The notes under the pieces were generated by a model that made no database searches, was not told where the DNA came from, and saw nothing but the letters and a program-made list of their open reading frames with translations. The translations under genes were made by a program, and so were the position numbers. From Thiobacillus sp. (GTDB lineage: Bacteria > Pseudomonadota > Gammaproteobacteria > Burkholderiales > Thiobacillaceae): 64,000 bases of DNA. Shown here piece by piece: positions 3,060-52,785 of the stretch; positions within the stretch are counted from its first letter, which is position 1; every line of letters begins with the position of its first letter. The stretch is taken from assembly GCA_044227195.1 (NCBI GenBank), contig JBGAFQ010000002.1, forward strand, positions 7,375 to 71,374, in the 5' to 3' direction.

Positions 3060-5222
3060 CTAGCGGGTTTCCCGGATGCCGTCGCGCAGCAGCGTTTCCA
3101 TGTTCGCCGCCGGCACCGGCCGGCTGAAGTAGTAGCCCTGCACCTCGTCGCAGCCGTGCTGCCGCAGATAGTCGAGATGCGCGCGGGTTTCCACGCCTTC
3201 GGCGACCACGCGCAGCCCGAGCGCGTGGCCCAGGGTGATGATGGCGCGCACGATGGCGGCGTCGTCGGGATCGCTGTCGATGTCGCGCACGAAACTCTTG
3301 TCGACCTTGAGGCGGTCGACCGGAAAGCGCTTGAGGTAGCTGAGGCTGGAATAGCCGGTGCCGAAGTCGTCCACCGAGATGTCGACGCCGAGCGCCTTCA
3401 GCGACTGCATCGCGACATTGATGCGCTCGGCGTCGTGCATGACGAAGGATTCCGTCACTTCCAGTTCCAGGCAGGCGGGATCGAGCGCGGCTTCGGCGAG
3501 CGCGTCGGCCACCGATTGCACCAGGCCGGTGTGGCGGAACTGGATGGGCGAGAGATTCACCGACACGGCGATCGGCGACAGGCCGGCGCGCAGCCAGGCG
3601 CTGTTCTGGCGACAGGCCTCGCGCAGGATCCACTGGCCGATGGGAATGATGAGCCCGGTTTCCTCGGCGATGGAAATGAAGCTGTCCGGCGGCACGATGC
3701 CCTTGCCGGGGCAGTCCCAGCGGATCAGCGCCTCGGCGCCCACGATGCGGCCGCTGGCGATGTCGATGCGCGGCTGGTAGTAGACGCGGAATTCATTGCG
3801 TTCCAGCGCGTGGCGCAGGCTGTTCTCCAGTTCCAGGCGCTCGCTGATCGCCTGGTTCAGCTCGGGCGTGTAGAAGTGGTAGGTGCTGCGGCCGGAGGCC
3901 TTGGCCTGGTACATGGCGGCGTCGGCGCAGCGCAGCAGGGCGTCCGGGTCTTCCCCGTCGCGCGGGTAGCAGCTGATGCCGATGCTGCAGCTGAGCCCGT
4001 ATTCCTGGCCGCCGTCCACCCAGGGCCGGGAAATCGCGTCGAGCAGGCGGCTGACCACGGCGAGTATCTCGTCCTCGTCGTGCTGCTCGGTGAGCACCAG
4101 CACGAACTCGTCGCCGCCCTGGCGCGCCACGCTGTCGTTGCCGCGCACGCAGCCCGTCAGGCGCGAGGCCACTTCCAGCAACAGGCGGTCGCCGACGTGA
4201 TGGCCGAGGCTGTCGTTGATGAGCTTGAAATGATCGAGATCGACGAACACGACGGCGACCTGGTTGCCGTGCCGCCAGGCGTGGGCGATGGCCTGATCGA
4301 TCCGGTCGCGCAGCAGCGACCGGTTCGGCAGGCCGGTGAGGCTGTCGTGGCTGGCCTGGTATTCCAGCGCGGCTTCGTGCTGCTTGCGCTCGGTGATGTC
4401 CACCACCGTGCCCTCGTAGAACTGCACGCTGCCGTCGGCGTTTTTCACCGCGCGCGCGTTTTCCGAAATCCAGATGATGCTGCCGTCGCGCCGGTAGACC
4501 TGCGACTCGAAATTGCGGACGCTGCCCTGGGCCTGCATCAGGCGTACGAATTCCATGCGCCGTGCGGGCAGGACATAGAGCTGGCGCTGGATGTCGCGCA
4601 GATGCGCAATCAGGTCGTCCGGCGAGGCATGGCCGTAAATGTGCGCCAGTGCCGGATTCGCATTGAGATAGTGGCCGTCCGGCGTGGTCTGGAAGATGCC
4701 CTCTGTCGCGTGCTCGAACAGGCTTTCGTAGCGGCGTACCGCCTCGCGCAGCATTTCGTCCACCGCCATCCGCTCGGAGATGTCCTGGATATAGCCCTCG
4801 ATCCAGGCCACCCGGCCGCTTTCGTCGCGCACGCCAACGGCGCGTTCCAGCACCCAGCATACATAGCCGTCGGCGCGGCGGATGCGGTATTCCACATCGA
4901 ACGGAACATCTGCATCGAGCGCGGCCTGGATGACGCGCGCCACCCGTTCGCGGTCCTCGGGCAGCGTGATCTGATCGTAGGACACGCGTCGGTTGAACAT
5001 CAGCTCGTTCGGCCGGTAGCCGGTCAGCTTGAAGCAGCCGTCGCTGGCGTATTCCATCGTCCAGTCTGCATCGACGCGGCACCGGTAGATCATCCCGACC
5101 AGATTGTCGGTGATCGTGGTGAGCAGGCGCATGACGTCGAGCGGGGCACCCGGGTGGGGCGTCCGGTCGTTCGGCGGGCCAGGGTTCCCGGCAAGCGCCG
5201 TCTGGCAGGTGAAGCGTTTCAT
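3060..5222 (-). CDS. PAS-PAS-GGDEF-EAL diguanylate cyclase/phosphodiesterase
   Basis: Two PAS domains, intact RGND..RQGGDEF, EAL and DDFGTGYSS motifs. The start is uncertain (5222 or 5132); the ORF-track start at 5483 lies upstream of the sigma54 promoter and is unlikely. Confidence 0.92.
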
Positions 5223-5294
5223 CGCGTCGTGGCTGGCATTGGGTTGGATTATGGGCAGGCGCGGTCCGACCTGCCATGGCGGTGATGGCATCGG

Positions 5295-5310
5295 AGCAAT
5301 AGCCATGCCA
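5295..5310 (-). promoter_or_regulatory. Sigma54 -24/-12 promoter for the GGDEF-EAL gene
   Basis: The minus strand reads TGGCATGGCTATTGCT, with exact GG-N10-GC spacing against TGGCAC-N5-TTGCW. Confidence 0.75.
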
Positions 5311-5526
5311 TGTTCAGGCTGCAATCCGCACAATGGCGACCATACAGGTACAGGCGGGCTCGCGCGTGCCCACCGATCCGACGTGGCTGCAGGCTGCACA
5401 TCCGGCGTGTTCGATTGGGTGCGTGTGCACCATTCCTGGGCGCATCGGGGCGACCGGACGGCCCCCGCCCTTTTTAATTGCATGGCTTTTCGGTAGGCTT
5501 CGGGCTAGTCAGAGAAAACCGACCCC

Positions 5527-39054: not shown

Positions 39055-39372
39055 TCATTTCAATTGCAGGCGCTCGACGATGCGGCCCTGCTTCAGATGC
39101 TGCTCGAAGATCTCGTCGATGTCGGCCTCGTCCACGTAGGTGTACCAGACACCTTCGGGGTAGACGACCAGCAGCGGGCCTTCGTCGCAGCGGTCCATGC
39201 AGCCGGCGCTGTTGATGCGGCATTTGCCTTCGCCGTTGAGGTTGGCCTGCTTGACCTTCTTCTTCAGGTAGTCGCGCATGCGCTGGCCGCCGGCCTCGCC
39301 GCAACATTTGGCGCCGTCGTCGCGCTGGTTGGTGCAGAAGAATACGTGGTGCTTGAAATAGGCTTCAGTCAT
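39055..39372 (-). CDS. Thioredoxin-like [2Fe-2S] ferredoxin
   Basis: [29 protein letters not shown]. Confidence 0.9.
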
Positions 39373-39748
39373 CTTGGGGCAGTTCCGAATATTTGAGGGC
39401 GTTGCCGTGCGCCTTCTCGACCGGATACTTGCGTGCGTTGATTTCCAGTTTCGAAGCGGCGGCGTCGAGCAGGTCGATGTCCAGCAGATCGGCCAGTCGC
39501 GTCAGGTAGATCAGCACGTCGGCGATTTCCTGCCGCACCGCCTCGCGCTGGTCCGCGTTCAGCGCCTGGCTCTGCTCGGGCGTCAGCCACTGGAAGGGCT
39601 CCAGCAGTTCGGCCGCCTCCACGGCAAGCGCCATCGCCAGGTTCTTGGGCGTATGGTAGCGTTCCCAGGCGCGCGCTTCGGCGAATTCGCGGATGCGAAG
39701 CCTGAGCGTGGCGAGACTGGCGACGGCGGGCGCATTCATGGCCAGCAT
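39365..39748 (-). CDS. MazG-like nucleotide pyrophosphohydrolase
   Basis: HTPKNLAMALAVEAAELLE, EIADVLIYL, NARKYP. The start may be 39739. Confidence 0.88.
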   Translation of the reverse strand: MLAMNAPAVASLATLRLRIREFAEARAWERYHTPKNLAMALAVEAAELLEPFQWLTPEQSQALNADQREAVRQEIADVLIYLTRLADLLDIDLLDAAASKLEINARKYPVEKAHGNALKYSELPQDD

Positions 39749-39762
39749 GATACCCCGGCATG

Positions 39763-39798
39763 CGTCGGCCTTACGACAGCGCTGTCGAATCCCCGACG
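39763..39798. promoter_or_regulatory. Tandem GTCG-N6-CGAC palindromes, putative enhancer (UAS)
   Basis: GTCG-GCCTTA-CGAC (39764-39777) and GTCG-AATCCC-CGAC (39784-39797), centres 20 bp apart, upstream of a sigma54 promoter. Confidence 0.6.
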
Positions 39799-39861
39799 GT
39801 GTCGGCCCGGGAGCGTCGCTTTGTCAGGTGGACTGGTGGGGGTTGGGGCGCCCGGTTGGGC

Positions 39862-39877
39862 TGGCCTGCGGTTTGCT
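39862..39877 (+). promoter_or_regulatory. Sigma54 -24/-12 promoter for the EPS locus
   Basis: TGGCCTGCGGTTTGCT with exact spacing, about 80 nt upstream of the wza-like ATG. Confidence 0.65.
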
Positions 39878-39954
39878 TGCTGTCTTGGGGCTGAAACCGA
39901 ATTTCAGGTCTGCTCTGGCATAATGCCCCGCAGATCAACTGTATATAAGGGAGG

Positions 39955-40584
39955 ATGGACATGTTCACGATCAACAAGCATCTCGCGCGCGCCGGTGTGG
40001 TGTTGGCGGTTGCCATGCTGGCGGGCTGTTCCAGCACGCCGACCTATCCGCCCGCGCCCGCGCAGACCGGCAGCTACGACTGGAACTACCTGATCGGCCC
40101 GGGCGACTCGGTCAACGTCTTCGTCTGGCGCAATCCGGAAGTCTCCGGTTCCTTCCCCGTCCGCCCCGACGGCAAGATGACCATGAACCTGGTCGAGGAC
40201 ATCCAGGCCTCCGGCAAGACTCCCACCCAGCTTGCGCGCGACATCGAGAAGGCGCTGGCTAAATACATCCAGGAGCCCATCGTCACGGTGATCGTCGCCG
40301 GCGGCATCGGGCCCTTCGACCAGCAGATCCGCGTGGTCGGCGAGGCCGCCAAGCCGCAGGCGCTGAACTACCGCGAGCACATGAGCCTGATCGACCTGAT
40401 GATCTCGGTCGGCGGCCTGACCGATTTCGCGGCCGGAAACAAGGCCTACATCCTGCGTACGGTGGACGGCAAACAGGAACGTCTCGGCGTGCGTCTGGAA
40501 GACCTGCTCAAGGGCGGCGACATTTCGGCCAACGTCGACATGCGCCCGGGCGACGTGCTGGTCGTGCCCGAGAGTCTGTTCTGA
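39955..40584 (+). CDS. XrtA/PEP-CTERM polysaccharide export lipoprotein (Wza-like)
   Basis: Lipobox LAGC, YLIGPGD, VRPDGK, SLBB domain, VVPESLF end. Confidence 0.92.
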   Translation: MDMFTINKHLARAGVVLAVAMLAGCSSTPTYPPAPAQTGSYDWNYLIGPGDSVNVFVWRNPEVSGSFPVRPDGKMTMNLVEDIQASGKTPTQLARDIEKALAKYIQEPIVTVIVAGGIGPFDQQIRVVGEAAKPQALNYREHMSLIDLMISVGGLTDFAAGNKAYILRTVDGKQERLGVRLEDLLKGGDISANVDMRPGDVLVVPESLF

Positions 40585-44729: not shown

Positions 44730-44745
44730 TGGCATAGCCATTGCT
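44730..44745 (+). promoter_or_regulatory. Internal sigma54 -24/-12 promoter
   Basis: TGGCATAGCCATTGCT with exact spacing, in the 79-nt gap before the ATPase gene. Confidence 0.75.
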
Positions 44746-51643: not shown

Positions 51644-52785
51644 CCGCGCACATCGTGCATGTCGTACACCGTTTCGATACCGGCGGCATGGAAAACGGCA
51701 TGGTCAACCTGTTCAATACCCTGTCGCCGGCGCGTTTCCGCCATACCGTCGTGGCCCTGACCGATTTCACCGATTTCCGCCAGCGCATCGTCGCGCAGCC
51801 GGTCGATTTCCGCGCCCTGCACCGCCCGCCCGGTCACGGACTGGGGTGGACAAAGCGGCTGTGGACCCTGCTGCGCGACCTCGAGCCCGACCTCGTGCAC
51901 ACCCGCAATCTCGCCGCGCTCGAGGCGCAGTTCGTCGCCGCCGCTGCCGGCGTGCGCGCCACAGTGCACGGCGAACACGGCCGCGACGTGTTCGACCTGT
52001 ACGGGCAGAACCGGAAATACAACCTGCTGCGCCGCGCCGTTCAGCCTTTCGTGTCGAACTACATCGCGGTCAGCCGCGATCTCGAGACCTGGCTGCGCCA
52101 GCAGATCGGCGTGCCGCAGAAGAAGCTGCACCAGATTTACAACGGCGTGGACAGCGAGAAATTCCATCCGCGCATGGGCGCACGGTCGGGCCGCCTGCCG
52201 CCGGGCTTTGCGAGTCCTGATGCCGTGGTGTTCGGTTCGGTGGGGCGCATGGTCGAGGTCAAGGATTACCCCATGCTGGTCCAGGCATTCATCCGCCTGG
52301 TCCGGCAGCAGCCCGAGCGTGCGGCGCGTGCGCGCCTGGTCATCGTCGGCGAGGGCAGCGCGCGCGCCGACTGCCAGCACCTGCTCGACCATGCCGGGAT
52401 GGCACATCTGGCCTGGCTGCCTGGCGAGCGTCACGACATCGCCGAACTGATGCGCACGTTCGACGTTTTCGTGCTCCCGTCGAAAAACGAGGGCATCTCC
52501 AATACCATTCTGGAGGCGCTGGCGAGCGGACTGCCCGTCGTCGCCACGGCGGTCGGCGGCACCGTCGAACTGGTGGCGCACGGGGTCAACGGCGCATTGG
52601 TGAAGGCGGGCGACGCCGCCGATATGGCACAGGCCTTGCTGGAATACCTGGACGCGCCCGCGCGCATTGCCGAACACGGCCGCGAGGCGCGGCGGCAGGC
52701 GGAACAACGCTACAGCATACCGGCCATGGCCGAGGCATACGCCGCGGTGTACGACAAAACGCTGGCGGGCCGTCGAACGGCCTGA
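51640..52785 (+). CDS. GT4 glycosyltransferase (TIGR03088-like)
   Basis: GGMENG, HGEHGRD, EGISNTILEA. Confidence 0.9.
   Translation: MTAHIVHVVHRFDTGGMENGMVNLFNTLSPARFRHTVVALTDFTDFRQRIVAQPVDFRALHRPPGHGLGWTKRLWTLLRDLEPDLVHTRNLAALEAQFVAAAAGVRATVHGEHGRDVFDLYGQNRKYNLLRRAVQPFVSNYIAVSRDLETWLRQQIGVPQKKLHQIYNGVDSEKFHPRMGARSGRLPPGFASPDAVVFGSVGRMVEVKDYPMLVQAFIRLVRQQPERAARARLVIVGEGSARADCQHLLDHAGMAHLAWLPGERHDIAELMRTFDVFVLPSKNEGISNTILEALASGLPVVATAVGGTVELVAHGVNGALVKAGDAADMAQALLEYLDAPARIAEHGREARRQAEQRYSIPAMAEAYAAVYDKTLAGRRTA

Follow-up and report, generated by a model that had tools for sequence, protein, structure and literature searches.

Predicted sigma-54 promoter and conserved tandem dyads ahead of the XrtA exopolysaccharide operon of Thiobacillus, with a PrsR-like orphan protein as candidate activator

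At glnAp2, NtrC binds tandem dimer sites near -108 and -140, both on one side of the helix, and oligomerizes upon phosphorylation. A comparable arrangement, composed of two dyads and a predicted sigma-54 promoter, heads the XrtA/PEP-CTERM exopolysaccharide (EPS) operon of a Thiobacillus genome (G000; 2.79 Mb, 77 contigs, 65% G+C) and is the subject of this report. The window, meaning the whole 64,000-nucleotide stretch of DNA that was analyzed, lies on contig C53 of this genome. As in the NtrC/glnAp2 model, two same-face dyads lie approximately 100-120 nt upstream, the activator would be a receiver-AAA+-helix-turn-helix (HTH) protein, and helical phasing is kept. The EPS element differs from glnAp2 in its recognition sequence, in the spacing of its sites (20 bp, versus ~32 bp at glnAp2), and in its target.

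The upstream activating sequences (UAS) of NifA are also similar, possessing a hexamer-N4-hexamer form and a TGTCG half-site approximately 100 nt upstream of a -24/-12 promoter. Unlike them, each EPS dyad is without one outer T/A base; moreover, more than half of the searched Thiobacillus genomes lack NifA, and most of those examined keep the element. FleQ, an activator-family protein controlling exopolysaccharide genes, acts at sigma-70 EPS promoters in response to cyclic di-GMP (c-di-GMP), whereas the Thiobacillus EPS operon has a sigma-54 box. The Pseudomonas FleQ box is GTCaNTAAAtTGAC (PMC6120874, PMC8125075) and has the GTCx-N6-xGAC form of the EPS dyads. FleQ was rejected as the binder because no FleQ-domain activator is encoded in G000.

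Another related system is the PEP-CTERM box. Haft et al. (2006) predicted a PrsR site before PEP-CTERM genes, a 17-nt motif 1 that ends in TTTACA and lies a mean of 62.8 nt upstream of the sigma-54 motif 2 (PMC1569441). This box and the EPS element have in common a sigma-54 promoter with an upstream activator site, an XrtA/PEP-CTERM organism, a spacer of ~63 nt, and the TGTCG half-site. The PEP-CTERM box is a single GTCG(G/A)-N5-TTTACA before PEP-CTERM genes, whereas the EPS element is a tandem YGTCR-N6-YGACR before a polysaccharide operon.

A more far-reaching reading, with a probability of about 40%, is that a PrsR-like orphan activator has YGTCR-N6-YGACR as its operator, acts as a repressor at its own sigma-70 promoter, and turns on the XrtA EPS operon by way of the tandem enhancer and the sigma-54 promoter. 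The element is composed of the following features of the window:

39763 to 39778, plus strand: distal dyad A, CGTCGG-CCTT-ACGACA (YGTCR-N6-YGACR), centered at about -117.5 from the predicted sigma-54 transcription start site (TSS)
39774 to 39787, no strand: junction palindrome CGACAGCGCTGTCG, perfect, made by the two inner half-sites
39783 to 39798, plus strand: proximal dyad B, TGTCGA-ATCC-CCGACG, centered at about -97.5, with 63 nt from the dyad end to the -24 box
39862 to 39877, plus strand: predicted sigma-54 promoter TGGCCTGCGGTTTGCT, with the -24 GG at 39863-64 and the -12 GC at 39874-75 (GG-N10-GC), and a predicted TSS at ~39887-39889

The GTCG-N6-CGAC cores of the two dyads are GTCGGCCTTACGAC at 39764-39777 (dyad A) and GTCGAATCCCCGAC at 39784-39797 (dyad B), and their starts are 20 bp apart. 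The original prediction, made from the letters of this stretch, had described two palindromes 20 bp apart, a 14-mer junction palindrome between them, and an exactly spaced -24/-12 element whose predicted TSS lay about 97 and 117 bp downstream of the dyads. Each of these was found where it had been placed.

The sequence TGGCCTGCGGTTTGCT matches 9 of the 11 specified positions of a TGGCAC-N5-TTGCW-like sequence. Boxes of the form TGGC-N7-TTGCW occur 6 times in the window, where 1.3 are expected, and none of 100 shuffles reaches 6. Conservation was followed in two sets of upstream regions. The first comprises 41 distinct orthologous regions of the same genus, in which a dyad was called at up to 1 mismatch to YGTCR-N6-YGACR, 40-125 nt upstream of the box. 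The second is an independent set of 77 named, distinct sequences, one genome per species; T. denitrificans DSM 12475, T. thioparus DSM 505, and T. denitrificans RG are among them, and all three carry the box and both dyads. All of the first set (41/41) and 73/77 of the second have the sigma-54 box. The genome encodes rpoN (C26:5530-6930) and 14 activator genes. Together, these comparisons support a genuine and conserved sigma-54 promoter ahead of the XrtA EPS export and biosynthesis operon.

The conserved unit of the dyads is the 16-mer YGTCR-N6-YGACR. At least one dyad is found in 37/41 regions, and two are found in 35/41. Two dyads are likewise present in 53 of the 77 regions of the second set, and 52 of these 53 pairs have the exact 20-bp separation. 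Dyad B is the best-conserved dyad, with a perfect match in 27/41 sequences. In dyad A, the inner half ACGACA and its CTT flank are strongly conserved, and the outer half (39763-68) is variable and the weakest part. The junction CGACA-N4-TGTCG is exact in 27/41 sequences and has up to one mismatch in 30/41; only 5 such junction sites occur genome-wide. A single central palindrome, ACGACA-N4-TGTCG, was considered in place of a tandem and dropped, as one-mismatch counts show that both 16-mers are conserved 20 bp apart. Taken singly, GTCG-N6-CGAC is not rare (4 in the window versus 3.3 expected; 97 in the 2.79-Mb genome), and the EPS pair is the sole case in the whole genome of two such sequences within 60 bp of each other.

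The spacer between the proximal dyad and the box in the second set is either 51-54 nt (15 cases) or 61-65 nt (40 cases), values that are one helical turn apart; between dyads and box, the genus alignment shows no conserved sequence. Conserved, phased dyads and a conserved box joined by a drifting spacer are the signature of an enhancer-dependent promoter. The dyads lie on the same helical face with their phasing preserved, as would be expected of a tandem enhancer with sites ~80-150 nt upstream.

The genome encodes the PrsK (926 bits), PrsR (770 bits), and PrsT (754 bits) proteins, all above their cut-offs, on contig C42 outside the window. The PrsR box is readily seen in this genome. The sequence [CT]GTCGG-N5-TTTACA lies upstream of 9/19 PEP-CTERM genes, and the broader form [CT]GTCG[GA]-N5-TTTACA gives 13 sites genome-wide (10 exact and 3 with one mismatch), each with a -24/-12-like box downstream. 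For the ten exact boxes, this distance is 61-86 nt. The 13 sites are found on contigs C29, C37, C39, C42, C48 (two), C61 (two), C67 (two), C72, C30, and C43, and PEP-CTERM genes follow most of them. A PrsR box is missing from ten of the 19 PEP-CTERM genes, including a three-gene cluster on C27.

Given these proteins, PrsR phosphorylated by PrsK could bind both dyads and activate the sigma-54 promoter, in which case the PrsR regulon would extend, by way of a variant site, to the EPS export genes. The half-site TGTCG(G/A) also forms the left half of the PrsR box. Dyad B is separated from TGGC by 63 nt, a distance that equals the PrsR-box spacing (61-86 nt here; mean 62.8 in PMC1569441) and is within the PrsR-type range of about 63 (32-92) nt. 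In genus g23, the dyad TGTCAG-GGTT-TGACA resembles TGTCGG-N5-TTTACA minus one base. PrsR is also among only three activators common to all four of the element-bearing genomes that were compared. Against this, no PrsR box with up to one mismatch occurs on the contig of the window. A position weight matrix (PWM) was built from the 13 genome sites, which score 25-31 bits, and no other position of the genome reaches 25; over 39749-39960, the best score is -7.8 bits. A PrsR box at the EPS promoter is thus ruled out by the PWM and the pattern scans. The two site types differ in the right half and in spacer length (N4 versus N5 between hexamers). No systematic second TGTCG palindrome, nor any dyad of the EPS type, was found at PrsR promoters, and the gene downstream of the EPS element encodes the TIGR03027 export protein, not a PEP-CTERM protein. 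A search for co-variation of the two sites across genera found none: the PrsR box is unchanged in g19, g21, and g23, whereas the EPS dyad varies. Genus g21 has PrsR and PrsR boxes, yet no EPS sigma-54 promoter.

Genetic work in related systems points the same way. Zoogloea prsK and prsR mutants still synthesize and secrete EPS (PMC9012009). In Aquincola, an rpoN1 mutant still makes EPS, and transcription of the EPS genes is RpoN1-independent (PMC9850573). With the PWM and pattern scans, these phenotypes leave PrsR as the EPS activator unsupported. Control by PrsR is therefore considered unlikely, and the activator of the EPS promoter is most probably another protein. Of the original prediction of a PrsR enhancer and sigma-54 promoter heading the EPS locus, the tandem enhancer-type site and the conserved promoter hold, and PrsR as the activator (-7.8 bits) is unsupported. 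The element was also said to define the motif of the activator, which for PrsR was published in 2006 (PMC1569441), differs from the dyads, and is visible at 13 promoters of G000. The placing of the EPS export genes in the PrsR regulon conflicts with an EPS region that is without a PrsR box and with the Zoogloea mutants. The tandem GTCG-N6-CGAC pair, which that prediction would place at PEP-CTERM promoters, is absent from them and found nowhere else in the genome.

Within the Thiobacillaceae, a sigma-54 box with an upstream dyad of the EPS type is found in four genera: g1 (this genus), g19, g23, and g31. Genus g1 carries two dyads, and the g31 form is degenerate. The g19 dyad is TGTCAGGAAATCGACG, 95-99 nt from the sigma-54 box, and the g23 dyad is TGTCAGGGTTTTGACA, 83-84 nt from the box. 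Neither the box nor the dyads were found ahead of the export gene in g21 and g26, and g22 has only a weak box that overlaps the start of the MazG-like gene, without dyads. Distant orthologs in other families of the order were considered and set aside, as they have no sigma-54 box.

In g29 (L082/L083), the export gene has a sigma-54 box, TGGCCCGGCGTTTGCT, without a dyad of the EPS type. One g29 genome has a GCAC..GTGC (NtrC-like) inverted repeat at the EPS promoter instead. By this distribution, the operon seems to have acquired different activators in different genera.

The activator genes of one genome each of g1 (the closed G020), g19 (G042), g23 (G084), and g21 were clustered with the 14 of G000. 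Only NtrC, PrsR, and one further protein are common to the four element-bearing genomes (G000, G020, G042, and G084). The third is an orphan receiver-AAA+-HTH_8 activator encoded within a mannose-sensitive hemagglutinin (MSHA)-type pilus cluster:

G000 contig C26, 25913 to 27325, minus strand: orphan receiver-AAA+-HTH_8 activator gene, in an MSHA-type pilus cluster, with no adjoining kinase gene

Its best curated family is PrsR, at a sub-threshold score (372 versus 502.6 bits). GAFTGA is present, as is an HTH_8 domain; both its HTH and its receiver loop, an unusual DLGLPP, resemble those of PrsR, a likeness that fits the shared TGTCG half-site. The pilus cluster also encodes an MshL equivalog, an MshE-like ATPase with a c-di-GMP motif, and an ExeA-like ATPase with a SPOR domain.

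In g1, g19, g23, and g31, a conserved CTCTGGCACAAT (extended -10) is immediately upstream of the orphan activator gene and is followed directly by the same dyad:

this genome (g1): own-promoter dyad of the activator gene, CGTCGAAAACCCGACA
G020 (g1): own-promoter dyad, CGTCGAAAGTCCGACA
G084 (g23): own-promoter dyad, TGTCGAAAAATCGACA
G042 (g19): own-promoter dyad, TGTCGAGAAAATGACA
G055 (g31): own-promoter dyad, TGTCGAAAAATTGACA

The same arrangement of CTCTGGCACAAT and dyad is present in 7/9 further genomes of the genus, and the own-promoter dyad is absent in g21, g26, and g29. Among the 14 activator genes of G000, only the C26-type gene has a perfect dyad within 700 nt upstream. The EPS dyad B of one species (TGTCGAAAAACCGACG) and the own-promoter site of a different species (CGTCGAAAAACCGACA) are near-identical. 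Dyad-bearing genera have activator orthologs with 85-100% identity, as against 69-73% elsewhere, and of six g23 genomes, the two with the activator are also the two with the EPS export gene.

The position of the dyad directly after the extended -10 of the activator gene implies autoregulation. With the small set of shared activators, it leads to the proposal that this protein recognizes YGTCR-N6-YGACR, autoregulates, and turns on the distal promoter of the EPS operon. Binding to the dyads and the identity of the activator are thus inferred from the sequences, conservation, phasing, and co-occurrence described above. The orphan C26-type protein is the best candidate for the EPS dyads, at about even odds of being the right one.

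On C26, which also carries rpoN, a prepilin-type pilin gene has a consensus sigma-54 promoter, TGGCACGCATTTTGCA, ahead of it, in minus-strand orientation and ~13 kb away from the gene of the orphan activator. Divergent from this promoter is a gene for a multi-pass membrane protein of 584 aa that has an H-box (THDVKNILQS), a degenerate kinase domain, and no NCBIfam match. This membrane protein is a possible sensor partner of the orphan activator.

Another activator may instead bind the dyads: NifA, a GAF-type NifA-like paralogue through cross-talk in nitrogen-fixing strains, NtrC, or non-orthologous activators in each genus. The NifA sites of G000, a nitrogen fixer, have the extended consensus TGT(C/A)G(G/C)-N4-(G/C)C(G/T)ACA, of which TGTCGGGTTTGCAACA and TGTCGCAAAGCCTACA are two examples, and share the exact architecture of the dyads. 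They are placed 42-118 nt ahead of nif-type boxes, including that of nifH. The EPS dyads read CGT-N10-ACA and TGT-N10-ACG, so that each is one outer mismatch away from the TGT-N10-ACA of NifA. The box without this dyad in g29 is evidence that other activators can serve the EPS promoter. NifA sites are found on contigs C41, C60, C65, C69, and C48:673, often at divergent promoter pairs, and nifH is at C69:4735.

The phylogenetic profile fails where the architecture fits, and NifA and its GAF-type paralogue were rejected as binders. NifA is present in 11/38 genomes of the genus and the paralogue in 14/38, and 20/38 have neither. Six genomes with neither protein were in the first alignment. Five of them (G020, G002, G009, G019, and G005) keep both dyads with up to 1 mismatch and the box, and the sixth (G014) keeps the box with degenerate dyads. 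Sites of the NtrC type (GCAC..GTGC) are unlike the dyads. A GlrR-like activator, whose sites are of the TGTC-N10-GACA type, has the wrong spacing and no ortholog in g19 and g23; it and the remaining activators are each missing from at least one element-bearing genome. Binding by one of these other activators is accordingly held to be improbable.

Downstream of the sigma-54 box, the leader and the start of the operon have the following features:

39916 to 39924, plus strand: TGGCATAAT, a putative extended -10 (TGn and CATAAT) of a sigma-70-type proximal promoter, with a predicted TSS at ~39931
39947 to 39954, plus strand: Shine-Dalgarno sequence AAGGGAGG, 6 nt 5' of the start codon and kept in the genus alignment
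39961 to 40584, plus strand: XrtA/PEP-CTERM exopolysaccharide export protein gene, which opens the operon (TIGR03027, 237 bits versus a cut-off of 180)

The alignment of genus upstream regions places the start of the export gene at ATG 39961 and not at 39955. It is followed, in order, by ChnLen (chain-length determinant), TyrKin (tyrosine kinase), a TIGR03016 outer-membrane protein, and an ATPase, after which the operon continues with WecB, FemAB, stp1, XrtA/EpsI, stp2, and an amidotransferase. The 200-bp gap between the MazG-like gene and the EPS operon probably contains two promoters in tandem, a proximal sigma-70-type and a distal sigma-54 promoter, with predicted start sites at ~39931 and ~39888, respectively.

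The GCATAAT sequence follows the sigma-54 box at a distance of 55-60 nt and is found in 40/41 and 75/77 sequences of the genus. Ahead of the export gene, TGGCATAAT is found in all sampled genera of the Thiobacillaceae except g18 and g20, and it is kept even in g21, g22, and g26, which have no good sigma-54 box there. A simple -35/-10 scan of the leader did not detect a TGGCATAAT promoter, and an Rfam search of the leader gave no match. A role of TGGCATAAT as an RNA hairpin or palindromic operator was rejected: the complementarity is present in some genera only and not within the genus, and the Rfam search was negative. The proximal promoter is likely ancestral in the family, and the sigma-54 module would have been added upstream in some genera.

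On the other side of the dyads is a divergent gene:

39365 to 39739, minus strand: MazG-like nucleotide pyrophosphohydrolase gene (Pfam PF12643, E 2.7e-15), with a probable start at ATG 39739
39746 to 39754, minus strand: CATGATACC (reverse complement GGTATCATG), a conserved block with almost no variation among 22 aligned sequences of the genus

The MazG-like gene is a conserved neighbor in the genus and in g22, g26, and g29, and a block related to CATGATACC is found in these three genera, including those without dyads and sigma-54 box. The block is probably the -10 (TATCAT) of the MazG-like gene, whose mRNA would be near-leaderless. The first ATG (39748) overlaps this putative -10, and the gene therefore probably starts at 39739.

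The dyads could be the operator of a factor that is not an activator and that controls the MazG-like promoter or represses the EPS promoters, with the proximity of the sigma-54 box being coincidental. Dyad A overlaps the expected -35 of the putative MazG-like promoter, 17 bp upstream of TATCAT, and the flank CTTACGACA is the best-conserved part. Moreover, the dyad at the orphan activator's own gene adjoins a sigma-70 promoter and not a sigma-54 promoter. What speaks against an operator of this kind is that g22 and g26 keep the MazG-like neighbor and the -10 block without a good sigma-54 box and without dyads, so that the dyads travel with the box and not with the divergent gene. In addition, the position of the dyads relative to the -24 box shifts by whole helical turns, and g19 and g23 retain the dyad 83-99 nt from the box amid otherwise unrelated sequence. 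A coincidental placement of this kind is very doubtful.

Further sigma-54-like boxes were seen in the window. The box TGGCATAGCCATTGCT (44730-44745, plus strand) follows the stop codon of the TIGR03016 outer-membrane gene (44715), precedes the ATG of the XrtA-associated ATPase gene (44795), and is retained in 29/30 same-genus genomes. The sequence ACGACATTTTTGTCTT (44561) was considered as an enhancer copy for this internal promoter and rejected as a chance match, being unconserved and within coding sequence. The box TGGCATGGCTATTGCT (5295-5310, minus strand) is apparently non-coding and upstream of a PAS-GGDEF-EAL gene for c-di-GMP turnover (3060-5483), whose annotated 807-aa open reading frame probably begins downstream of the box. 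The near-consensus box TGGCACAGGCCTTGCT (52625-52640, plus strand) is within the stp2 glycosyltransferase coding sequence, ~190 nt 5' of the start of the XrtA amidotransferase gene, and may be a chance match or an internal promoter.

Several observations count against the orphan activator as the regulator of the EPS operon. The enhancer is degenerate with the box intact in 4/41 genus sequences. The YGTCR-N6-YGACR pattern is itself degenerate: the genome contains 80 perfect matches, and non-coding DNA is not enriched in them, so that the link between dyad and activator rests on positional conservation. The element-bearing genera may form one clade, in which case the co-occurrence counts are not independent. 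The HTH of the activator is identical in g21, a genus without sites. Among genomes of the genus, G009 has the dyads and no match to the activator, which may be a search artifact, and G119 has the activator and no match to the export gene. No dyad was found at the sigma-54 pilin promoter of the pilus cluster, and none is conserved within ~220 nt upstream of the box at 44730-45.

If the orphan activator does control the operon, dimers of this NtrC-family protein would bind both dyads on one face of the DNA, two helical turns apart. Phosphorylation of the receiver domain would allow the dimers to assemble into the active oligomer, which would contact the closed complex of the sigma-54 holoenzyme by DNA looping and open it. 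The resulting inducible transcription from the distal promoter would add to the basal output of the proximal promoter.

The element is an ordinary kind of bacterial enhancer, and its value is local rather than conceptual. The tempting assignment to PrsR is corrected, as the PrsR box is already known and different. The outcome is a testable regulatory map consisting of two promoters, a 16-bp operator that occurs twice, and a named candidate activator other than PrsR. Thiobacillus and related bacteria abound in groundwater, sediments, and wastewater, where they form biofilms and flocs. PrsR appears to control the PEP-CTERM proteins and another regulator the polysaccharide operon, in agreement with the Zoogloea and Aquincola mutant phenotypes. 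If the proposed control by the orphan activator is true, the matrix polysaccharide and the PEP-CTERM proteins would be under two sister regulators, the orphan activator and PrsR, perhaps with related kinases, and this split control would explain why polysaccharide is still made by prsR mutants elsewhere.

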